A stretch of 26,221 nt of DNA from a virus (IMGVR_UViG_2617270943_000001:1-26221); one strand, 5' to 3'; counted from the first letter of the stretch, positions 5,041 to 26,221 are shown. Program-made: numbers and translations. Notes: generated by a model not told the origin, from the sequence alone.

Positions 5041-5120
5041 TTAGGATGGATTTATTTTGTGACTTGAATCGCATAGCGATAACTGAAGCGAGGTTATGGT
5101 GGTTTTTTTAACGGTGTGTG

Positions 5121-5283: not shown

Positions 5284-5973
5284 CTACCCATGCTTCCTAT
5301 ATGTCTGCGGCATGCTCCCAATAACCTTACCGAAGATGAACACCCGGTTCATCTCGTCTTTCTCGATCGGGTCCCACGGTGAGTAGCTTTTGTTATCAGA
5401 GATGACCAGCAGCTTATCCTTCATCATTTGCAGGCGCTTTACATGGGCTGTGTCGTCGTACAGAAACGCATAGATACCATCACCGTCGAAAGATTTAACT
5501 GTGATATCAACGAACAGCAGATCACCTGGTTCGATCGTTCCTGACATGCTGTCACCACGCACGTTAATGATGCGGATATTTTCCGCCTTCCTACCATCGA
5601 ACATGTGACGAGCATCGTCAAACGAGTACTCAACCGAGCGTAGAACTTCTACAAACTCACGGTTGATGACTCCCGGCCCAGCACTGACTTCTATATCAAG
5701 AACGTCAATCTTGAAGTATTTGGAATGGCTGACAGTTGATTGTATTGGTTGCACTGTACTGTCTGACATATTTCCAACGCCAGAAGATAACCATTCTGCG
5801 CGCACACCCAAAGCGTTCGCGATCTCCACGATTTTAGTTGTTTGATTAGCTTTCCCTGTTTCGATTTTCTGAATAGCAGCCTGGCTAACCCCGACCAAAT
5901 CCCCAAGCGCCTTTTGTGTAAGGCCTCGCGCTAATCTGGCTTCTTTAAGTCTTTCTGAGAGTGTTGTTTTCAT
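5284..5973 (-). CDS. cI: cI-type repressor: N-terminal HTH plus C-terminal S24 (LexA-like) autopeptidase, 230 aa
   Basis: HTH LTQKALGDLVGVSQAAIQKIE; Ala-Gly cleavage site (SAGPG); catalytic Ser (GDSM) and Lys (VKRL). Divergent from the cro-like gene across an operator-rich spacer. ATG at 5973 has no Shine-Dalgarno, consistent with a leaderless PRM transcript as in lambda. Confidence 0.85.
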   Translation of the reverse strand: MKTTLSERLKEARLARGLTQKALGDLVGVSQAAIQKIETGKANQTTKIVEIANALGVRAEWLSSGVGNMSDSTVQPIQSTVSHSKYFKIDVLDIEVSAGPGVINREFVEVLRSVEYSFDDARHMFDGRKAENIRIINVRGDSMSGTIEPGDLLFVDITVKSFDGDGIYAFLYDDTAHVKRLQMMKDKLLVISDNKSYSPWDPIEKDEMNRVFIFGKVIGSMPQTYRKHG

Positions 5974-5979
5974 AGTCCA

Positions 5980-6077
5980 AATGTACAACCAAGGTTTTAT
6001 TCCATCAAACGAAAATGGTTGTTGACTAAAAACAACCATAGTTTTAATCTTGATTCAAATTAACCACGGAGGTTGTT
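5980..6077. promoter_or_regulatory. OR operators with divergent pR and pRM
   Basis: Dyad TGGTTGTT-7 bp-AACAACCA (6017..6039) overlaps a -35 TTGACT (6022..6027), 17-bp spacer and -10 TAATCT (6045..6050). Further ACAACCA/GGTTGTT half-sites at about 5986 and 6071. GGAGG Shine-Dalgarno before the cro ATG. Confidence 0.6.
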
Positions 6078-6377: not shown

Positions 6378-6917
6378 ATGCAACCACTTCCATACCAACA
6401 GACTAGCGGATTTAGCCCGACTGCGGTGATAAATCGTTCTCAAACAAAACAGGTGCCAGGCCACGAAAAAATCCGTGATGCCGTCCGCGCCTGGTCGGCT
6501 GTAGATAATCAGGATGTCGTTGCCACACTCATTGTGAATGAGTATCGGGAGCAGGGCGGCGGCACCATCGATTTCCCTGATGATGTCAGCCGTGCACGCC
6601 AGAAGCTGTTCCGCTTCCTCGATAACAAATTCGATTCTGAAAAATACCGAAATAACGTGCGTGAACTGACCCCGGCAATTCTGGCGGTACTAACGCTGGA
6701 ATATCGCGGTTACCTGGTTGAGCAGGATAGCTTCATGGCCAGGTTGGCTGAAATGGAAAAGGAACTCAGTGAGGCAAAACAGGCTGTCATTCTCAACGCA
6801 CCACGCCACCAGAAACTGAAGGAAATTAGTGAAGGTATTGTATCGATGTTTCGTGTGGACCCAGATCTGGCTGGTCCATTGATGGCGATGGTTACTACCA
6901 TGCTGGGGGCGATATGA
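6378..6917 (+). CDS. YdaT-family protein in the cII position, 179 aa
   Basis: Conserved blocks YREQGGG and ELTPAILAVLTLEYR resemble Rac prophage YdaT as I recall it; located between cro and O; AGGAG Shine-Dalgarno. Confidence 0.65.
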   Translation: MQPLPYQQTSGFSPTAVINRSQTKQVPGHEKIRDAVRAWSAVDNQDVVATLIVNEYREQGGGTIDFPDDVSRARQKLFRFLDNKFDSEKYRNNVRELTPAILAVLTLEYRGYLVEQDSFMARLAEMEKELSEAKQAVILNAPRHQKLKEISEGIVSMFRVDPDLAGPLMAMVTTMLGAI

Positions 6918-9584: not shown

Positions 9585-11111
9585 ATGAAAAAAGCCATAG
9601 CATATATGCGATTTTCATCACCAGGTCAGATGTCTGGCGACTCATTAAACCGACAGAGAAGACTTATTGCTGAATGGTTAAAGGTAAATAGTGATTATTA
9701 TCTTGATACCATAACATATGAAGATTTAGGATTAAGTGCATTCAAAGGAAAGCATGCACAATCAGGAGCTTTTTCGGAATTTTTAGATGCTATAGAGCAT
9801 GGTTATATATTGCCAGGAACTACATTGTTAGTTGAAAGTCTGGACAGACTTTCAAGAGAAAAAGTCGGTGAAGCGATTGAACGTCTGAAATTGATTTTGA
9901 ATCACGGTATTGATGTTATAACTCTTTGCGACAATACAGTCTATAATATTGACTCTTTGAATGAGCCATATTCATTAATAAAAGCCATACTTATAGCACA
10001 AAGGGCAAATGAAGAAAGCGAGATAAAGTCAAGTCGGGTTAAATTATCATGGAAGAAAAAACGGCAGGATGCACTGGAATCAGGTACGATTATGACGGCG
10101 TCTTGTCCGAGATGGCTCTCCTTAGATGACAAAAGAACGGCTTTTGTTCCAGACCCCGACAGGGTGAAAACTATTGAGCTAATTTTTAAACTCAGGATGG
10201 AAAGGCGCTCATTGAATGCAATAGCCAAGTATTTAAATGATCATGCTGTAAAGAATTTCTCAGGAAAAGAAAGTGCATGGGGACCTTCTGTAATTGAAAA
10301 ATTATTAGCGAATAAAGCTCTGATAGGTATATGCGTACCTTCATATCGTGCAAGAGGTAAAGGAATAAGTGAAATCGCTGGCTATTATCCCAGAGTCATA
10401 TCAGATGATTTGTTTTACGCTGTACAGGAAATTCGGTTGGCACCTTTTGGTATTAGCAATAGTAGCAAAAATCCTATGTTGATAAATCTACTTCGAACAG
10501 TTATGAAGTGCGAGGCTTGTGGTAATACCATGATTGTTCATGCGGTATCTAGAAGTTTGCATGGCTATTATGTTTGTCCGATGAGAAGACTGCATCGATG
10601 TGACAGGCCATCAATAAAGAGAGATTTGGTTGATTATAATATCATTAATGAGTTGCTTTTTAATTGTAGTAAAATCCAACCAGTTGAAAACAAGAAAGAT
10701 GCTAATGAAACTTTAGAGTTGAAAATTATTGAGCTCCAGATGAAAATTAATAATTTAATTGCTGCATTATCTGTTGCGCCTGAAGTTACCGCTATAGCAG
10801 AAAAAATCAGAGTATTAGATAAGGAATTACGAAGGGCTTCTGTATCATTAAAAACTTTGAAGAGTAAAGCGGTGAGTTCACTTGGTGATTTTCATGCTAT
10901 TGACTTAACCAGTAAAAATGGGCGAGAGCTATGTCGTACACTTGCCTATAAAACATTCGAAAAAATCATAATCAATACAGATAATAAAACCTGTGATATC
11001 TATTTTATGAATGGCATTGTTTTTAAACACTATCCTTTAATGAAAACAATATCCGCCCAGCAGGCGATAAGTACTCTCAAATATATGGTTGATGGTGAGG
11101 TTTATTTTTGA
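9585..11111 (+). CDS. ybcK: Large serine recombinase (resolvase/invertase-type N-terminal domain with recombinase and zinc-ribbon extension), 508 aa
   Basis: N-terminal AIAYMRFSSPGQ with catalytic-Ser context and LLVESLDRLSR motif; C-terminal CxxC...C cluster; AT-rich codon usage; resembles DLP12 YbcK. Confidence 0.8.
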   Translation: MKKAIAYMRFSSPGQMSGDSLNRQRRLIAEWLKVNSDYYLDTITYEDLGLSAFKGKHAQSGAFSEFLDAIEHGYILPGTTLLVESLDRLSREKVGEAIERLKLILNHGIDVITLCDNTVYNIDSLNEPYSLIKAILIAQRANEESEIKSSRVKLSWKKKRQDALESGTIMTASCPRWLSLDDKRTAFVPDPDRVKTIELIFKLRMERRSLNAIAKYLNDHAVKNFSGKESAWGPSVIEKLLANKALIGICVPSYRARGKGISEIAGYYPRVISDDLFYAVQEIRLAPFGISNSSKNPMLINLLRTVMKCEACGNTMIVHAVSRSLHGYYVCPMRRLHRCDRPSIKRDLVDYNIINELLFNCSKIQPVENKKDANETLELKIIELQMKINNLIAALSVAPEVTAIAEKIRVLDKELRRASVSLKTLKSKAVSSLGDFHAIDLTSKNGRELCRTLAYKTFEKIIINTDNKTCDIYFMNGIVFKHYPLMKTISAQQAISTLKYMVDGEVYF

Positions 11112-11255
11112 GTAATAATCACTTTTTCAACCGTGCTATAGTAAGAAAGTTAGGTAAGTACATTTAGACTGGCCCCCTGAATCTCCAGACAACCAATATC
11201 ACTTAAATAAGTGATAGTCTTAATACTAGTTTTTAGACTAGTCATTGGAGAACAG

Positions 11256-11621
11256 ATGATTGATGTCTTAGGGCCGGAGAAACGCAGACGGCGTACCACA
11301 CAGGAAAAGATCGCAATTGTTCAGCAGAGCTTTGAACCGGGGATGACGGTCTCCCTCGTTGCCCGGCAACATGGTGTAGCAGCCAGCCAGTTATTTCTCT
11401 GGCGTAAGCAATACCAGGAAGGAAGTCTTACTGCTGTCGCCGCCGGAGAACAGGTTGTTCCTGCCTCTGAACTTGCTGCCGCCATGAAGCAGATTAAAGA
11501 ACTCCAGCGCCTGCTCGGCAAGAAAACGATGGAAAATGAACTCCTCAAAGAAGCCGTTGAATATGGACGGGCAAAAAAGTGGATAGCGCACGCGCCCTTA
11601 TTGCCCGGGGATGGGGAGTAA
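11256..11621 (+). CDS. insC: IS2 transposase OrfA (InsC)
   Basis: Translation [47 protein letters not shown]... with HTH; ends just after the AAAAAAG slippery heptamer at 11573..11579. Confidence 0.9.
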
Positions 11622-12484
11622 GCTTAGTCAGCCGTTGTCTCCGGGTGTCGCGTGCGCAGTTGCACGTCATTCTCAGACGAACCGATGACTGGATGGATGG
11701 CCGCCGCAGTCGTCACACTGATGATACGGATGTGCTTCTCCGTATACACCATGTTATCGGAGAGCTGCCCACGTATGGTTATCGTCGGGTATGGGCGCTG
11801 CTTCGCAGACAGGCAGAACTTGATGGTATGCCTGCGATCAATGCCAAACGTGTTTACCGGATCATGCGCCAGAATGCGCTGTTGCTTGAGCGAAAACCTG
11901 CTGTACCGCCATCGAAACGGGCACATACAGGCAGAGTGGCCGTGAAAGAAAGCAATCAGCGATGGTGCTCTGACGGGTTCGAGTTCTGCTGTGATAACGG
12001 AGAGAGACTGCGTGTCACGTTCGCGCTGGACTGCTGTGATCGTGAGGCACTGCACTGGGCGGTCACTACCGGCGGCTTCAACAGTGAAACAGTACAGGAC
12101 GTCATGCTGGGAGCGGTGGAACGCCGCTTCGGCAACGATCTTCCGTCGTCTCCAGTGGAGTGGCTGACGGATAATGGTTCATGCTACCGGGCTAATGAAA
12201 CACGCCAGTTCGCCCGGATGTTGGGACTTGAACCGAAGAACACGGCGGTGCGGAGTCCGGAGAGTAACGGAATAGCAGAGAGCTTCGTGAAAACGATAAA
12301 GCGTGACTACATCAGTATCATGCCCAAACCAGACGGGTTAACGGCAGCAAAGAACCTTGCAGAGGCGTTCGAGCATTATAACGAATGGCATCCGCATAGT
12401 GCGCTGGGTTATCGCTCGCCACGGGAATATCTGCGGCAGCGGGCTTGTAATGGGTTAAGTGATAACAGATGTCTGGAAATATAG
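11579..12484 (+). CDS. insD: IS2 transposase OrfB (InsD; DDE catalytic domain, expressed by -1 frameshift fusion to OrfA)
   Basis: The ORF is in the -1 frame relative to insC and overlaps it by 43 nt; sequence matches IS2 InsD as recalled, with the DDE catalytic core expected for an IS3-family OrfB. Confidence 0.9.
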
Positions 12485-12558
12485 GGGCAAATCCAACATT
12501 AAAATTATCTATCCTGAACGAAGCGTCCTGAGCTATGGTTTTACTATAGAGACTGCCA

Positions 12559-12882: not shown

Positions 12883-13343
12883 ATTCCAATTAACAATGAG
12901 AAACACATAGCCACCCCGTGGTATTGAAACCATATAATGTTGGATTTGAAAACAGATCTTTTTCCATGTATTAATAACTACATCCCCGCGAGTGATTCAA
13001 AAAGGAGGGCCCAATTTTGTCCGAGTTTTTGTATTCCCCCGCATGCCGCTGCGGAGCACTACATCTGAGTGTCTGACTAGGGGATAAAATTAGACTGGAT
13101 AGTGAGAAGAAAGTGGCGTGCTAGGCTGTGCCGAGTGCTACCAGTACACCCTGGGGGTGTGCAGCTTTCGCCGAGACTGTAGTGGGTATCGGTTAATGCA
13201 CGAAAAACCGAGAGGTCAGACAACCAATTTGCCGTAGGATTGTTTCCGGTGCGATACCGGTGTACTAACTGAAAGCAATGCGAAAAAGCATAAACTCGGT
13301 CCTTCAGTCGCCCTACACACTATTTACTAAGAAGGGCTAAAGC

Positions 13344-13887: not shown

Positions 13888-14343
13888 GTGAATCTCCCAC
13901 AAGATGGCATCAAATTACATCGCGGTAACTTCACCGCTATCGGTCGGCAGATCCAGCCTTATCTGGAGGAGGGCAAATGCTTTCGCATGGTGCTTAAACC
14001 GTGGCGTGAGAAACGCAGTCTTTCCCAGAATGCACTCAGCCACATGTGGTACAGCGAAATCAGTGAATACCTCATCAGCAGGGGTAAAACGTTCGCTACT
14101 CCAGCTTGGGTAAAAGATGCTCTCAAACACACATATCTCGGTTATGAAACCAAAGACCTGGTTGATGTTGTAACCGGTGATATCACCACTATCCAGTCGT
14201 TACGCCATACCTCCGATCTTGATACCGGAGAGATGTATGTCTTCCTGTGTAAGGTTGAAGCCTGGGCGGTGAATATTGGCTGCCACCTGACTATTCCGCA
14301 GAGCTGCGAGTTCCAGCTGCTCCGCGACAAGCAGGAGGCGTAA
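13888..14343 (+). CDS. ybcN: NinB-like protein (YbcN family), 151 aa
   Basis: Translation [27 protein letters not shown]...[13 protein letters not shown] matches DLP12 YbcN and the NinB family RSLxQN motif; GTG start. Confidence 0.8.
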
Positions 14344-15292: not shown

Positions 15293-15377
15293 AGTCAGAG
15301 ATAACAATCAACTAATACTGTTTCGTTGATTTTTGCTTGTAATTGGCGTTCTGGTCTGATTTTTGTGGAGTAAGTTG

Positions 15378-15761
15378 ATGCGTGATATTCAGATGGTTCT
15401 TGAGCGTTGGGGAGCGTGGGCGGCTAATAATCATGAAGATGTGACCTGGTCGTCCATTGCCGCCGGTTTTAAGGGATTAATTACTTCAAAAGTAAAATCT
15501 CGCCCGCAATGTTGTGACGATGACGCGATGATCATTTGCGGGTGCATGGCCCGTCTGAAAAAGAACAACAGCGATTTGCACGATTTATTAGTAGATTATT
15601 ATGTAGTCGGTATGACATTCATGTCACTGGCAGGTAAGCATTGCTGCTCTGATGGTTATATCGGGAAAAGGTTACAGAAGGCTGAGGGCATAATTGAAGG
15701 GATGTTAATGGCATTAGATATCCGGTTAGAGATGGATATCGTTGTTAATAACTCTAATTAA
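15378..15761 (+). CDS. quuD: Late-gene antiterminator Q (phage 82/DLP12 QuuD type), 127 aa
   Basis: Translation [24 protein letters not shown]... with Cys-rich zinc-binding region ([16 protein letters not shown]); positioned after rusA and before the lysis genes. Confidence 0.8.
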
Positions 15762-15813: not shown

Positions 15814-15965
15814 AAAAATAAAGGGTAATATATAACAGAAGGTTTGTATAGTTAGAAGCAAGGTTGTGCTTCTAAAGGAAGTGGCTTGAGGGAGCCACTT
15901 ATATGTTGGGGAGGCAAAGCCTCCCACAACATATCTTTTAGTAATCAAATTAGAACTGGTAAACC
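15814..15965 (-). ncRNA. Candidate small RNA between the porin 3' end and the minus-strand terminator (IpeX-like position)
   Basis: Three perfect 8-bp hairpins (15853..15874, 15879..15900, 15901..15934) plus the terminator hairpin in under 180 nt, co-directional with the porin gene. The DLP12 sRNA IpeX is reported at the nmpC 3' end; sequence identity not verified. Confidence 0.25.
15901..15940 (+). terminator. Rho-independent terminator on plus strand (candidate tR' of the late operon)
   Basis: Extended hairpin ATATGTTG-GGGAGGC-AAA-GCCTCCC-ACAACATAT followed by CTTTT, about 140 nt downstream of Q. Confidence 0.5.
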
Positions 15966-17032
15966 ATACCTACAGCAACGATATCATCGGTAGCAACGCC
16001 AGATGCTTTCGTGAAATCGCTCTTATCAATCAGGTTGATTTTGTAGTCAACAAAAGTGGACATATTTTTGTTGAAGTAATAGGTTGCACCTACATCAACA
16101 TATTCAACCAGGTCCTGATCACCCCAAACACCCAAGTCTTTTCCTTTAGAATGCAGGTAAGCAACGGATGGACGCAGGCCGAAGTCGAACTGATATTGTG
16201 CAACAGCTTCGAAGTTTTGTGCTTTGTTGGCAATATGGTTATTACCAAAAACAGTCATGTTCTGGGTTTCAGAATAGGTGGTGGCCAGATAGATGTTGTT
16301 CGCATCATATTTCAGACCAGCTGCCCATACTTCAGCATTTTGACCAGAAGCATTCAGACCGTTGTTACCGTAGATAACCTGATTATTAGTGCGATCAGAT
16401 TTAGCATAGGTTGCACCCACGCCGAATCCTTCATACTCATAAGTAGTTGAGAAACCGAAACCATCGCCATTAGCTTCAGTTACTTCATTTCGGTCATTTT
16501 TGCCCTGATACTGAGCTGCAAAGTTCAGGCCATCAACCAGACCAAAGAAGTCGTTGTTACGATAAGTTGCAACACCTGTGGTGCGACCAGTCATGAATAC
16601 ATCTGTTTGGGTCCAGGTATCGCCACCGAATTCTGGCAGAACGTCAGTCCACGCACCGATGTCGTATGCTACACCGTAGTTACGGCCGTAATCGATTGAG
16701 CCGTAGTCACCGAATTTCAGGCCTGCAAATGCAAGACGGGTTTTGTCTTTGGAGGAACCTTGAGATTCAGCGCGGTTGCCTTTGAATTCATATTCCCACT
16801 GACCGAAACCAGTCAGTTGATCGTTGATTTGGGTTTCACCTTTGAAGCCAAGACGGGCATAAGTAGTATCACCATCATCTGCATCATTAGAGGAGAAGTA
16901 GTGCTTAGCATTAACTTTCCCGTACAGATCCAGCTTGTTACTGTCTTTATTATAAATTTCAGCTGCCTGAGCAGACATCGCCATCAGTACTGATGCAGCT
17001 ACAGCAGAAATTGCCACTGTTAATTTTTTCAT
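15950..17032 (-). CDS. nmpC: General porin of the OmpC/OmpF/PhoE family (NmpC/Lc-type phage-encoded porin), 360 aa
   Basis: Signal peptide [29 protein letters not shown], porin motifs and C-terminal VGMVYQF. Encoded antisense to the late operon between Q and the lysis genes, as in DLP12 and PA-2. Confidence 0.9.
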
Positions 17033-18797: not shown

Positions 18798-18970
18798 TAG
18801 CGATAATTTTACTCATCATCCTTCACATCTGGCTCTGTAGACAGGGTGGTGCTCACTTCTGGAGTGAATCCAGATTAAACATCTCATTGCTGATGCTTGA
18901 TATTGAGCATTTTGCGCGCGGTAAGGGGCTGCGTTGAGATAAGAGCCAGTCATTACAAATACCAGGATTT

Positions 18971-20139: not shown

Positions 20140-20360
20140 ATAATTATTATCATTTTGCGGGTCCTTTCCGGCGATCCGACAGGTTACGGGGCGGCGACCT
20201 CGCGGGTTTTCGCTATTTATGAAAATTTTCCGGTTTAAGGTGTTTCCGTTCTTCTTCGTCGTAACTTAATGTTTTTATTTAAAATACCCCCTGAAAAGAA
20301 AGGAAACGACAGGTGCTGAAAGCGAGCTTTTTGGCCTCTGTCGTTTCCTTTCTCTGTTTT
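20140..20360 (+). other. cos: Lambda-type cos site (cosQ-cosN-cosB); cosN 12-nt cohesive end GGGCGGCGACCT at 20189..20200
   Basis: The sequence ...GATCCGACAGGTTACGGGGCGGCGACCTCGCGGGTTTTCGCTATTTATGAAAATTTTCCGGTTTAAGG... is near-identical to the lambda cos junction with a few substitutions and a 1-bp indel, immediately upstream of nu1. Confidence 0.85.
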
Positions 20361-20377: not shown

Positions 20378-20923
20378 ATGGAAGTCAACAAAAAGCAGCT
20401 GGCTGACATTTTCGGTGCGAGTATCCGTACCATTCAGAACTGGCAGGAACAGGGAATGCCCGTTCTGCGAGGCGGTGGCAAGGGTAATGAGGTGCTTTAT
20501 GACTCTGCCGCCGTCATAAAATGGTATGCCAAAAGGGATGCTGAAATTGAGAACGAAAAGCTGCGCCGGGAGGTTGAAGAACTGCGGCAGGCCAGCGAGG
20601 CAGATCTCCAGCCAGGGACTATTGAGTACGAACGCCATCGACTTACGCGTGCGCAGGCCGACGCACAGGAACTGAAGAATGCCAGAGACTCCGCTGAAGT
20701 GGTGGAAACCGCATTCTGTACTTTCGTGCTGTCGCGGATCGCAGGTGAAATTGCCAGTATTCTCGACGGGATCCCCCTGTCGGTGCAGCGGCGTTTTCCG
20801 GAACTGGAAAACCGACATGTTGATTTCCTGAAACGGGATATCATCAAAGCCATGAACAAAGCAGCCGCGCTGGATGAACTGATACCGGGGTTGCTGAGTG
20901 AATATATCGAACAGTCAGGTTAA
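20378..20923 (+). CDS. nu1: Terminase small subunit Nu1, 181 aa
   Basis: Translation MEVNKKQLADIFGASIRTIQNWQEQGMPVLRGGGKGNEVLYDSAAVIKWYA... is near-identical to lambda Nu1 (NohD-type). Confidence 0.95.
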   Translation: MEVNKKQLADIFGASIRTIQNWQEQGMPVLRGGGKGNEVLYDSAAVIKWYAKRDAEIENEKLRREVEELRQASEADLQPGTIEYERHRLTRAQADAQELKNARDSAEVVETAFCTFVLSRIAGEIASILDGIPLSVQRRFPELENRHVDFLKRDIIKAMNKAAALDELIPGLLSEYIEQSG

Positions 20924-22199
20924 CAGGCTGCGGCATTTTGTCCGCGCCGGGCTTCGCTCACTGTTCAGGCCGGAGCCACAGACCGCCGTTGAATGGGCGG
21001 ATGCTAATTACTATCTCCCGAAAGAATCCGCATACCAGGAAGGGCGCTGGGAAACACTGCCCTTTCAGCGGGCCATCATGAATGCGATGGGCAGCGACTA
21101 CATCCGTGAGGTGAATGTGGTGAAGTCTGCCCGTGTCGGTTATCTGGATTTTTTCAAAGGCGAGATAGGGAAAACCCATCTGGCTCAGGAGCTGTGGACG
21201 CAGATTGATAACGGTCAGCTTGCGCCTGACCTGACTGAAATCAGGACGTCCATAACGGATGTCAGCAATGAAATAACGCAGACCGTCAATAAGAAACTGG
21301 AAGACCAGAGTGCAGCGATCCAGCAGATACAGAAGGTTCAGGTTGATACAAATAATAACCTGAACAGCATGTGGGCAGTGAAGCTGCAGCAGATGCAGGA
21401 CGGACGCCTTTATATTGCGGGTATCGGTGCCGGTATTGAGAACACCCCTGACGGCATGCAGAGTCAGGTGCTGCTGGCAGCAGACAGGATTGCGATGATT
21501 AATCCTGCGAATGGCAACACAAAGCCGATGTTTGTTGGTCAGGGCGATCAGATATTCATGAATGAAGTGTTCCTGAAACGCCTGACGGCCCCCACCATTA
21601 CCAGCGGCGGTAATCCTCCGGCATTTTCCCTGACATCAGACGGGAGACTGACGGCGAAAAATGCGGATATCAGTGGCAGTGTGAATGCGAACTCAGGAAC
21701 GCTCAACAATGTCACGATTAACCAGAACTGTACGATTAAGGGCATGCTGGAGGCGACCCAGGTCAGAGGAGATTTCGTTAAAGCTGTATCAAAAGCCTTC
21801 CCGAAAAAAGTCGGTACATGGGGTAACACGGAAACACCAAACGGTACGGTTACAGTCACCATCAGCGATGATCATAACTTTGACCGCCAGATTATTATTC
21901 CGCCCATTATTTTTAACGGTATAGCGTATGACGATCCGGGGAGCGGAAATAACCCAGGAGGCACGCGATACACGGGTTATGGTTTTGAAGTTCGCAAAAA
22001 CGGCGTATTAATCGCATCCAGAGAAACTAAAGGGGCCATTCCCGGTAGTTACAGTGCAGTTATTGATATGCCCAGTGGCAGGGGAAGCGTCACTCTGGAG
22101 TTTAAGATTTTCCAGAAAGGCAATCAGGGGGCAGGCAATATCACCGACTGTACGGTGATTGTGACCAAAAAAGCCGCTTCCGGCATCAGTATTCGTTGA
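20898..22199 (+). pseudogene. Chimeric in-frame ORF: terminase large subunit A N-terminus (about 82 aa) fused to the C-terminal about 350 aa of tail-tip host-specificity protein J
   Basis: Residues 1-82 (MNISNSQVNRLRHFVRAGLRSLFRPEPQTAVEWADANYYLPKESAYQEGRWETLPFQRAIMNAMGSDYIREVNVVKSARVGY) match lambda A; the remainder (...WAVKLQQMQDGRLYIAGIGAGIENT...SGGNPPAFSLT...VNANSGTLNNVTI...) matches the lambda J C-terminal region; junction near 21144. Start overlaps nu1 by 26 nt as in lambda. Confidence 0.75.
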
Positions 22200-22220
22200 A
22201 ATATTTATAACCCCAATAAA

Positions 22221-22247
22221 GGGCGTCAGGAATGACGCCTTTTTTAT
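22221..22247 (+). terminator. Rho-independent terminator after the J remnant
   Basis: GGGCGTCA-GGAA-TGACGCC hairpin followed by TTTTTTATT. Confidence 0.7.
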
Positions 22248-22269
22248 TGCAGAAAAGCGAGAGGTAATT

Positions 22270-22869
22270 ATGCGTAAAGTTTGTGCAGCAATTTTGTCCG
22301 CAGCCATTTGTCTGGCCGTATCCGGTGCGCCTGCATGGGCGTCTGAACATCAGTCCACGCTGAGCGCGGGGTATCTTCATGCCTCGACGAACGTCCCCGG
22401 CAGCGATGATCTGAACGGGATTAACGTGAAATACCGTTATGAGTTTACGGACACACTGGGGCTGGTGACGTCATTCAGCTATGCAGGAGACAAGAATCGC
22501 CAGCTGACCCGTTACAGCGATACCCGCTGGCATGAAGATTCCGTTCGTAACCGCTGGTTCAGCGTAATGGCGGGGCCGTCTGTGCGCGTGAATGAATGGT
22601 TCAGCGCGTATGCGATGGCGGGTGTAGCTTACAGCCGTGTGTCGACTTTCTCCGGGGATTATCTTCGCGTAACTGACAACAAGGGGAAAAAGCACGATGT
22701 GCTGACCGGAAGTGATGACGGTCGCCACAGCAACACGTCTCTGGCGTGGGGGGCTGGCGTGCAGTTTAACCCGACCGAATCCGTGGCCATTGATATTGCT
22801 TATGAAGGCTCCGGCAGTGGTGACTGGCGCACTGACGGTTTCATCGTGGGTGTCGGTTATAAATTCTGA
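22270..22869 (+). CDS. lom: Lom outer-membrane beta-barrel protein (Ail/Lom family), 199 aa
   Basis: Signal peptide and Ail/Lom-type beta-barrel ending in VGVGYKF; gene order J-lom-stf as in lambda. Confidence 0.9.
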   Translation: MRKVCAAILSAAICLAVSGAPAWASEHQSTLSAGYLHASTNVPGSDDLNGINVKYRYEFTDTLGLVTSFSYAGDKNRQLTRYSDTRWHEDSVRNRWFSVMAGPSVRVNEWFSAYAMAGVAYSRVSTFSGDYLRVTDNKGKKHDVLTGSDDGRHSNTSLAWGAGVQFNPTESVAIDIAYEGSGSGDWRTDGFIVGVGYKF

Positions 22870-22895
22870 TTAGCCAGGTAACACAGTGTTATGAC

Positions 22896-22923
22896 AGCCC
22901 GCCGGTTCAGGCGGGCTTTTTTG
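22896..22923 (+). terminator. Rho-independent terminator after lom
   Basis: AGCCCGCC-GGTTCA-GGCGGGCT hairpin followed by TTTTTTG. Confidence 0.7.
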
Positions 22924-22933
22924 TGGGGTGAAT

Positions 22934-25900
22934 ATGGCAGTAAAGATTTCAGGTGTACTGAAAGACGGCACAGGAAAACCGGTACAGAACTGCACAATCC
23001 AGCTGAAAGCAAAACGTAACAGCACCACGGTGGTGGTGAACACGCTGGCCTCAGAAAATCCGGATGAAGCCGGGCGTTACAGCATGGACGTTGAGTACGG
23101 GCAGTACAGCGTTATTCTGTTGGTGGAGGGATTCCCGCCGTCACATGCCGGGACCATCACCGTGTATGAAGATTCCCGACCCGGTACGCTGAATGATTTT
23201 CTCGGTGCCATGACGGAGGATGATGCCCGTCCTGAGGCACTGCGCCGTTTTGAACTGATGGTGGAAGAGGTGGCGCGTAACGCGTCCGCGGTGGCACAGA
23301 ACACGGCAGCCGCGAAGAAGTCAGCCAGCGATGCCGGCACATCAGCCCGTGAGGCGGCAACCCATGCGACTGATGCTGCAGGCTCAGCACGCGCAGCCAG
23401 CACGTCAGCCGGACAGGCCGCTTCGTCGGCTCAGTCAGCGTCTTCCAGCGCAGGAACGGCATCAACAAAGGCCACTGAAGCGGAAAAAAGTGCTGCCGCT
23501 GCAGAGTCCTCAAAAAGCGCGGCGGTCACCAGTGCCGCTGCGGCGAAAACGTCAGAAACGAATGCGGCAGCGTCACAACAATCAGCAGCCACTTCTGCAT
23601 CCGCCGCGACCACGAAGGCGTCAGAAGCAGCCACCTCAGCCCGGGATGCGGCGGCCTCAAAAGAGGCAGCGAAATCATCAGAAACGAACGCATCATCAAG
23701 CGCCAGTAGTGCCGCTTCCTCGGCAACGGCGGCAGGCAATTCCGCGAAGGCGGCAAAGACGTCTGAGACAAACGCCAGGTCTTCTGAAACGGCAGCGGGA
23801 CAGAGCGCCTCGGCTGCGGCAGGCTCAAAAACAGCGGCTGCGTCGTCTGCCAGTGCCGCGTCAACAAGTGCCGGGCAGGCCTCAGCCAGTGCCACCGCCG
23901 CCGGAAAATCGGCAGAAAGCGCCGCATCGTCTGCTTCAACAGCCACAACGAAGGCTGGCGAAGCCACTGAACAGGCCAGCGCAGCAGCAAGGTCTGCTTC
24001 CGCAGCGAAGACATCCGAGACGAACGCGAAAGCGTCGGAAACCAGCGCAGAATCCTCAAAAACGGCTGCCGCATCGTCCGCCAGTTCGGCGGCGTCATCG
24101 GCATCATCGGCGTCTGCTTCAAAAGATGAGGCGACCAGACAAGCGTCCGCAGCGAAGGGCAGCGCCACGACGGCATCCACGAAGGCGACAGAGGCAGCTG
24201 GCAGTGCGACGGCGGCAGCACAGAGCAAAAGTACGGCGGAATCCGCGGCAACGCGCGCCGAGACAGCGGCAAAACGGGCAGAGGATATTGCATCCGCCGT
24301 GGCGCTTGAGGATGCAAGTACGACGAAAAAGGGGATAGTACAGCTCAGCAGTGCGACCAACAGTACGTCTGAAACGCTGGCGGCAACGCCAAAGGCAGTA
24401 AAATCAGCCTATGACAATGCAGAGAAACGTCTGCAGAAAGACCAGAACGGCGCTGATATACCCGATAAGGGACGCTTCCTGAACAACATTAACGCGGTCA
24501 GTAAAACAGACTTTGCTGATAAGCGTGGTATGCGTTATGTGCGGGTTAACGCTCCTGCAGGTGCAACATCTGGAAAATATTACCCTGTTGTTGTTATGCG
24601 TTCTGCTGGCTCAGTAAGCGAACTGGCATCAAGGGTCATTATCACCACGGCAACGCGAACCGCAGGCGATCCGATGAATAACTGCGAGTTTAACGGATTT
24701 GTTATGCCTGGTGGCTGGACTGACAGGGGGCGTTATGCTTATGGAATGTTCTGGCAATATCAAAACAATGAACGAGCCATCCACTCAATAATGATGAGTA
24801 ATAAGGGCGATGATTTGCGCTCTGTGTTCTATGTTGATGGCGCTGCTTTCCCTGTTTTTGCGTTTATCGAAGATGGCCTGTCAATATCCGCACCTGGTGC
24901 TGATCTCGTTGTTAATGATACGACCTATAAGTTTGGGGCAACAAATCCGGCGACTGAATGTATCGCGGCGGACGTTATCCTTGATTTTAAGAGTGGGCGT
25001 GGTTTTTATGAGTCTCATTCGTTAATCGTTAACGATAACTTGTCGTGCAAAAAACTTTTTGCCACAGACGAAATTGTAGCGCGTGGTGGTAATCAGATTC
25101 GAATGATAGGTGGGGAGTATGGGGCATTATGGCGTAATGATGGCGCTAAAACTTACCTGCTGCTTACCAATCAAGGTGATGTTTATGGTGGCTGGAATAC
25201 ATTAAGACCGTTTGCTATTGATAACGCAACCGGCGAACTGGTTATTGGAACCAAACTGTCCGCAAGTCTGAACGGTAATGCATTAACAGCAACAAAGCTG
25301 CAAACGCCAAGACGGGTTTCTGGTGTTGAGTTTGATGGTTCCAAAGATATTACTTTAACCGCCGCGCATGTGGCTGCTTTTGCCAGAAGGGCAACGGATA
25401 CATATGCCGATGCGGATGGTGGCGTTCCCTGGAATGCCGAATCAGGCGCTTATAATGTCACCCGCTCTGGCGACAGCTATATTCTGGTTAACTTCTATAC
25501 CGGAGTCGGAAGTTGCCGGACCTTGCAGATGAAGGCGCATTACAGAAATGGTGGTCTGTTCTACCGTTCTTCAAGAGACGGTTATGGTTTTGAGGAAGAC
25601 TGGGCAGAAGTTTATACCTCGAAAAATCTTCCACCAGAAAGCTACCCAGTCGGCGCACCAATCCCGTGGCCATCAGATACCGTTCCGTCTGGTTATGCCC
25701 TGATGCAGGGGCAGACTTTTGACAAATCTGCTTACCCGAAACTTGCAGCCGCTTATCCGTCAGGCGTGATCCCTGATATGCGTGGCTGGACGATTAAGGG
25801 CAAACCTGCCAGTGGTCGGGCCGTATTGTCTCAGGAACAGGACGGCATTAAATCGCATACCCACAGCGCCAGCGCATCCAGTACAGATTTGGGGACGAAA

Positions 25901-26221
25901 ACCACATCGTCGTTTGATTACGGCACTAAATCCACGAATAACACTGGTGCGCATACCCATAGTTTAAGTGGCAGCACGAATGCAGCTGGTAATCACAGCC
26001 ATAGAGATGGCCGTCGATTTAACCCCAGTGTTTTTAAAGATACTTATCAATATGGTTATACAAGCTCAGGTCAAAATACCTGGGGTGTACAAGGCTCAGT
26101 AGGTATGTCTACGGGGTGGTTAGCTAATACCAGTACAGATGGTAATCATAGCCACTCACTGTCCGGCACAGCAGCATCTGCAGGTGCACACGCGCATACT
26201 GTCGGTATTGGTGCTCATACG
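22934..26221 (+). CDS. stf: Side tail fibre protein (Stf-like), 3'-partial; at least 1096 codons open to the window end
   Basis: Manual translation from ATG 22934 ([30 protein letters not shown]...) stays open to 26221; long Ala/Ser/Thr-rich repetitive region; C-terminal HxH motifs ([26 protein letters not shown]) typical of phage long tail fibres. Absent from the ORF track because no stop codon lies within the window. Confidence 0.8.

Follow-up and report, generated by a model that had tools for sequence, protein, structure and literature searches.

Why does an open reading frame that begins as the terminase large subunit of a lambdoid phage end as its tail-tip protein, and does it represent the scar of a deletion or an expressed protein? 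This question is raised by the 433-aa frame at 20898..22199 (+) of the window, by which we mean the whole 26,221-nt stretch of DNA under analysis, corresponding to the last 26.2 kb of the draft E. coli contig JNPK01000008.1 (GCA_000703725.1). A first-pass annotation had proposed an in-frame fusion of the terminase gene A with the tail-tip gene J, left by deletion of the head and tail genes between them. The composition of the frame, the prophage that carries it, the deletion, its endpoint within A and the likely fate of the product are considered below.

Composition of the chimeric frame

The frame was resolved by BLASTP and Pfam into A codons 1–82 followed by J codons 815–1165, that is, gpA(1-82)::J(815-1165), and the exact product is present at NCBI as WP_032183549.1 under the name 'DUF1983 / phage tail tip domain-containing protein'. 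The GTG start is that of lambda A and lies in an upstream context identical to that of lambda A, with the frame overlapping the end of nohD/nu1 by 26 nt in the arrangement known from lambda. As had been proposed, the frame opens with about 82 aa of the terminase large subunit: residues 1–82 are 100% identical to lambda gpA 1–82 (E=1e-53), and the corresponding segment (A nt 1-246, codons 1–82; 20898..21143, +) is the same in the window, lambda, K-12 and the intact sibling prophage PM4-5 described below. From residue 82 onward the product aligns with lambda J from Y814 to residue 1131/1132 at 47% identity (E=1e-100), which places the junction at gpA residue 82 and J Y814. This J-derived segment, consisting of J codons 815–1165 and the stop (21144..22199, +), is 99.88% identical to PM4-5 gpJ and contains a Phage_Tail_Tip domain at aa 140–268 (Pfam, 2e-31) and the receptor-binding domain Ig_GpJ_C at aa 297–432 (1e-25), while chains of the solved gpJ structures 8iyk and 8xcj match residues 134–432 (up to 6e-100). 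At the DNA level, homology to A stops at 21143 and homology to J begins at 21138-21141, and the frame stays open across the junction as one 433-aa ORF. Both the A and the J matches lie far above chance expectation. A contiguous homologue of one single protein was ruled out, the two halves matching unrelated proteins in Pfam and BLASTP, and residues 83–433 are related to J.

What remains of A is a binding segment attached to a fragment of an enzyme. The GpA_ATPase profile is matched over a 45-residue stub (profile positions 3–49 of 247) with 23.3 bits, below the cut-off of 25.6; the complete packaging ATPase domain with Walker A and B is absent from the chimera according to Pfam, the A homology ending at nt 246, and the C-terminal nuclease/prohead-binding region of gpA gave no match past residue 82 (Pfam, BLASTP). 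Genetic work by the Feiss laboratory reportedly assigns Nu1 binding to the first ~48 residues of gpA, and the identity of aa 1–82 indicates that the whole Nu1-interacting N-terminal segment is kept, as the first-pass annotation had claimed. The A-derived segment ends within the deviant Walker A stretch KSARVGY, the breakpoint falling in what we take to be the codons of the P-loop-like motif KSARVGYS of gpA. A deviant Walker A is present in lambda gpA (PMC9410871).

On the J side, cryo-EM of gpJ places an alpha-helical bundle from residue 809, followed by the central straight fibre and then the receptor-binding domain (PMC11101478). By this domain map the chimera retains from J all but the first ~6 residues of the alpha-helical bundle, together with the central straight fibre and the receptor-binding domain, and the cut in J would thus lie close to a domain boundary. 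The in-frame switch into J and the retention of its receptor-binding end therefore stand, although the description of the J part as the receptor-binding region was too narrow, as it also includes the bundle and the fibre. The N-terminal hub and FNIII domains of J are absent from the chimera, J codons 1–814 having been deleted and the lambda J alignment starting at residue 814.

Prophage setting

Gene content and order indicate that both arms, left and right, of a DLP12-lineage lambdoid prophage lie in the window, with the DLP12 synteny intD, emrE, ybcK, porin, essD-rrrD and nohD recognised from the gene names under the matches and from comparison with K-12. The tRNA-Arg gene that adjoins intD in PM4-5 lies just outside the window. 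The left arm contains the integrase (1-1164, −), a cI-like repressor (5284-6039, −), red and replication genes, emrE and ybcK, which encodes a 508-aa large serine recombinase with Resolvase, Recombinase and zinc-ribbon domains (9585-11111, +). Comparison with PM4-5 delimited a 1,331-bp IS2 (11165-12495; ends TAGACTGGCCCC...GGGGCAAATCCA) inserted immediately downstream of ybcK with a 5-bp ACATT duplication. Q (15363-15761), lysis genes and an OmpC/NmpC-like porin gene (15950-17032, −) are followed by the lambda cohesive-end site cosN, GGGCGGCGACCTCG (20189..20202, +; exact match, 0 expected by chance), which lies upstream of nohD/nu1. The latter encodes an intact terminase small subunit of 181 aa (20378..20923, +; full-length Pfam Phage_Nu1, 4.5e-100, with nohD annotation in relatives). 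The right side carries lom, stf and tfa: lom, encoding an Ail/Lom outer-membrane protein, is intact (22270..22869, +; Pfam Ail_Lom, 1e-122), and the side tail fibre gene stf (22934..26221, +; Pfam phage_tail_N, Gp34_trimer and Collar, with the gene call in L007/L008) is cut by the end of the window and contig at 1096 of its 1132 codons.

Two further features of the arms were recorded. The serine recombinase of ybcK sits in a prophage that already holds a tyrosine integrase, and it was considered as a candidate for events with a TA core. Within stf, alternative-frame ORFs of 335, 309 and 263 aa cover the alanine-rich repeat on both strands (23331-24360, GC 0.61); these long frames are by-products of repetitive composition and not genes.

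An intact sibling prophage defines the deletion

Intact sibling prophages were found in E. coli PM4-5 (NZ_CP096834.1) and EC100 (NZ_CP182308.1) at the same DLP12/argU site, next to tRNA-Arg. They carry A, W, portal, protease, D, E, FI, FII, Z, U, V, G, T, H, M, L, K and I, with J, lom, stf and tfa at the right end. Positions 1-21143 of the window match the PM4-5 prophage at 99.9% identity, the IS2 insertion aside, and for positions 21138-26221 the identity is 99.88%, with 6 differences over 5084 nt; exactly 17,005 bp between the two matches are absent from the window. The PM4-5 prophage differs in having the full 17,005 bp from A to J and in lacking the window's copy of IS2, and on this comparison it would be, in effect, the undeleted parent form of the window prophage. 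The missing DNA takes with it A codons 83–641, W, B, C/Nu3, D, E, FI, FII, Z, U, V, G, T, H, M, L, K, I and J codons 1–814, and hence all head and tail genes between the two endpoints. The identity of ~99.9% to the intact prophage on either side of the junction shows one deletion, which agrees with the earlier proposal that a single event took most of A, W through I and most of J; the distance of roughly 15 kb then given for the two points has to be corrected to 17,005 bp as measured in the sibling, or 16,990 bp on the lambda map.

A three-way comparison with A and J of PM4-5 placed the junction in the hexamer GGTTAT (21138..21143, +), with the crossover in TAT at 21141-21143. The codons read GTC GGT TAT TCC in A, TCA GGC TAT CTG in J and GTC GGT TAT CTG in the window, the shared TAT being A codon Y82 and J codon Y814 (of 1165). 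Short homology, which the first-pass annotation had suggested looking for at the breakpoint, is thus present, exact over TAT and with 5/6 positions over GGYTAT. Both parent ends carry the direct repeat, one copy is left at the junction and A runs straight into J, as expected of a microhomology deletion; no IS or recombinase-site sequence was seen when the window junction was read. The deletion would have joined A codon 82 to J codon 815 through the common TAT. Taken together, these data make it highly likely that the frame is a scar, left when a single recent microhomology-mediated event removed 17,005 bp from an otherwise complete lambdoid prophage at the DLP12 site. As such, the fusion is ordinary prophage decay, another case of a known pattern.

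Reality, rarity and number of steps

Since the window is the final 26.2 kb of a draft contig, a mis-join near the contig end had to be weighed. However, the junction lies 5 kb from that end, and both it and the protein recur in one further NCBI assembly and in an SRA run that was assembled separately; the copy from the latter differs by one synonymous base, at which the PM4-5 state is kept. With the junction present in three independent assemblies, an assembly artefact was ruled out, and we give it practically no probability. The same junction was found in none of 5,426 complete E. coli genomes, and the event is therefore rare and probably recent.

The best match to the whole region, 38M23CPO015, has the same cut in A, but its junction enters J 122 nt further upstream and is out of frame. 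This arrangement is exactly what an intermediate would look like (with TAG at the junction) if the fusion had arisen in two steps, by a 16,883-bp out-of-frame deletion as in 38M23CPO015 and a subsequent frame-restoring loss of 122 bp; the 122-nt difference is bordered by GGTTA/GGCTA, and a comparable nested pair exists in E14 and L019, which have both flanks in common and differ by a further loss of ~127-130 nt starting exactly at the junction. Yet the 38M23CPO015 junction occurs in 1 of 5,426 genomes, and in the A sequence to its left 6 of 243 positions disagree with the window, the mismatches reaching to within 4 nt of the junction, whereas the flank of the window is identical to that of intact prophages. 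With flank haplotypes that differ and a junction unique to one genome, descent from a 38M23CPO015-type junction is unlikely. A single step from a PM4-5-like parent explains everything, and we regard the two-step route as highly improbable. As an observation in its own right, the right ends lie 122-130 nt apart behind the same left end in both pairs, E14/L019 and window/38M23CPO015 (L001), which reflects either two successive uses of that left end or independent events that fell close together.

A reused endpoint at nucleotide 245 of A

Complete genomes, together with contigs from IMG/VR and from metagenomes, were found to carry the left end of the deletion, '...GTGTYGGTTA' (A nt 245), in combination with at least 16 different right partners, most of these examples having been found by searches anchored on that position. 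The junction types include the two in J (window and 38M23CPO015). With coordinates given on the reverse complement of the PM4-5 locus L006 (A = 532-2457), the other mapped partners are L at 13275 (VG48B2 and porcine ETEC, at the Qin site), lom at 18961 (E94), stf at 22850 (LR-45) and 22139 (L018), K at 14084 (L026), E at 6810 (L022) and C at 5092 (L025), while in STEC308, E14, E423, L016, L017, L019 and L021 the partner is unmapped tail-fibre or other sequence. TA directly precedes the first retained base in 9/10 of the mapped right partners. The left flanks of different junction types differ from intact prophages by 0-2 mismatches in 766 nt, and the events therefore arose on several backgrounds.

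Like-built scans of the same collection found no junction at two other TA positions in A (nt 116 and nt 203) or at the second GGTTAT in the gene (nt 526-531), compared with 8 contigs at nt 245; the control pattern for nt 170 was ill-designed and failed to recover two known nt 170 cases. In an unbiased sample of 80 Nu1 loci, A was intact in 66, and 11 truncated copies ended at 10 different positions, one of the 11 at nt 245. An apparent truncation in this sample, L028 at A nt 1463, looks like an IS186 end and is presumably an insertion rather than a deletion. The position is thus strongly preferred, not exclusive, accounting for ~3-10% of truncations against ~0.05% expected per position. The reuse of nt 245 is a real regularity, of which we found no earlier description.

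Other endpoints in A also recur. Nucleotide 170 is joined to two different right partners in the 80-locus sample (L076, L098) and nt 1167 to two partners in a second sample (L127/L035 and L133); reused left endpoints may be general to deletions in A. In E. coli E423 (L015, NZ_CM173464.1), the stub of A left by a cut at nt 245 precedes an AraC-family regulator, fragments of IS elements and then ybhB-bioA, which suggests a larger rearrangement reaching the lambda attachment-site region. Across the 16 junction types, the retained sequence after TA approximates N-C-N-G, with G at +4 in 13/16 and C at +2 in 10/16; it mirrors the CGGT left of TA to give a quasi-palindrome CGGT TA NCCG, in a sample partly biased to window-like junctions. 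This right-partner dyad motif was not relied on, part of the sample having been found through similarity to the window's own junction.

Possible causes of the preference

The A-side endpoint of the window deletion was probably non-random, since deletions in lambdoid A genes show a strong preference for the very position at which it lies. Because the A breakpoint is reused, 'random illegitimate recombination' gives an incomplete account of the origin of the deletion. An alternative that is compatible with reading the frame as a scar is that a site-directed event set off the deletion at A nt 245; candidate triggers are a nick or break, a stalled 3' end that re-primes where it meets a 'TA' downstream, or a recombinase whose 2-bp core is TA. 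The scar would in that case be one outcome of a recurring process by which lambdoid prophages are inactivated at the terminase gene. The number of partners on exactly the same left end, the TA before the first retained base, the empty control positions (including the second GGTTAT) and the several backgrounds of the events all argue for such a trigger, and the E14/L019 and window/H1 pairs look like repeated use of one left end. However, no enzyme or structure was identified; there is no Chi site, significant hairpin at the position or IS remnant, the Pin invertase crossover site differs in sequence and core, only one of the 11 truncated A genes in the unbiased 80 loci ends at nt 245, and most examples stem from searches anchored on nt 245 itself. 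We therefore regard a site-directed trigger of this deletion as a tentative possibility.

Several specific candidates were rejected. Chi-stimulated end protection was ruled out by the lack of Chi, in either orientation, in the right arm of PM4-5. A local hairpin or pause at nt 245 was discarded, as 60-nt folds were no better than those of shuffled sequences (a weak upstream stem had z of about −2). The published site of Pin-type invertases, TTCTCCCAAACC-AA-GGTTT, is unlike GTGTCGGTTATTCC, and the crossover here is at TA. The hexamer GGTTAT is not a sufficient cause, its second copy in A having given no junctions, and IS-mediated adjacent deletion was dismissed because no IS sequence was seen at any junction read.

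A pattern in which the left end is constant, the right ends vary and TA pairs at the terminus would fit downstream re-priming from a 3' end or nick that arises repeatedly, or the action of an enzyme with a 2-bp TA core. In its general form, namely that a site-directed process repeatedly breaks or switches strands at A nt 245 and deletes rightward to any nearby 'TA', the proposal appears to us rather unlikely. If it holds, the loss of morphogenesis and packaging genes in E. coli lambdoid prophages would be driven in part by a specific host-, phage- or sequence-encoded mechanism. Deletions that start preferentially at one terminase nucleotide would represent a mechanistic bias in prophage inactivation that can be tested experimentally, and one for which genome annotation and prophage-completeness tools could allow. 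The fusion itself is of low interest in comparison with this hotspot, which is of moderate interest.

Fate of the prophage and of the chimeric product

Without the terminase ATPase and nuclease domains, portal, capsid and tail, the prophage would be 'grounded', unable to package DNA or to form particles, while the genes present suggest that it may still be induced to replicate and lyse. The strain would thereby keep immunity, replication, lysis, cos and Nu1 and forgo particle production. The fusion provides a clean one-step example of the passage from an inducible to a grounded prophage, and with parent and product at 99.9% identity it makes a good model for early prophage domestication.

Translation of the chimera would begin at the A start, which is unaltered, with the same coupling to nu1 as for A, and on the late-operon transcript only. 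The product would probably have neither terminase nor adsorption function, because the catalytic domains of A and the tail-mounting hub domains of J are missing. A selected role could be, for example, that of a decoy which uses the gpA N-terminus to titrate the Nu1 of incoming lambdoid phages, or of a soluble, receptor-blocking trimeric fibre freed at lysis. In support of such a role, the chimera combines the whole Nu1-interacting N-terminus of A with a complete fibre and receptor-binding module, whose cut lies ~six residues inside the alpha-helical bundle; the native start of translation, with its coupling to nu1, is retained, the frame is intact in all three assemblies with one synonymous difference, and the J part is structurally autonomous and might fold, a gpJ fragment from residue 713 being able to bind the receptor (PMC11101478). 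On the other hand, a domesticated gene should show spread across lineages, purifying selection or a preference for in-frame junctions, and what was found is three assemblies (with 0/5,426 complete genomes), one synonymous difference and an in-frame junction with the partner gene in 3/16 of the deletions that use this A endpoint, a share at or below the chance rate. Furthermore, a divergence of ~0.1% from the intact parent leaves no time for selection to show, and the product would have no signal peptide route to the outer membrane. We therefore consider a functional, selected protein very unlikely.

The scar is favoured over an expressed protein because most of the parallel deletions that use this A position lose the frame, and the open frame would then be a 1-in-3 accident. 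On sequence comparison, the evidence favours the ORF being, most simply, an inert scar, and nothing was found that points to a new function.

Comparison with known systems

Among the closest parallels are the other scars at nt 245. Those of 38M23CPO015, VG48B2 and porcine ETEC (Qin), E94, LR-45, E14 and STEC308 have the same left end '...GGTTA' and TA microhomology with the partner, and these nt 245 scars differ from the window in their partners (L, K, C, E, lom, stf or another J position) and in being mostly out of frame. Independent deletions from A to the tail region were also seen elsewhere, in 52F4 from A nt 879 to J and in CT02, at Qin, from A nt 1617 in two steps.

The cryptic prophage DLP12 of K-12 (nohD-aaaD-tfaD) resembles the window in its chromosomal site and in the gene order intD...ybcK...porin, essD, rrrD, nohD, and there too A is reduced to an N-terminal stub joined through TAT microhomology to a gene of the tail-fibre region. 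Its break, however, lies at A nt 308 with tfa as partner and a loss of ~22 kb, which rules out common ancestry of the window junction with the aaaD scar of K-12. Many other genes of DLP12 in K-12 are lost or disrupted, whereas the window prophage is otherwise intact and keeps J', lom and stf.

As to the protein, the J-derived residues are homologous to the C-terminal part of gpJ713 (PDB 8xcj/8xck), the recombinant C-terminal fragment from residue 713 that binds LamB (PMC11101478). The chimera differs from this fragment in starting ~100 residues later (J 815), without FNIII, and in carrying 82 foreign N-terminal residues. From 21521 onward, J and lom of the window are ~95% identical at the DNA level to those of phage 434, whose J directs binding to OmpC (PMC11101478), and the same prophage has the OmpC/NmpC-like porin gene on the opposite strand.
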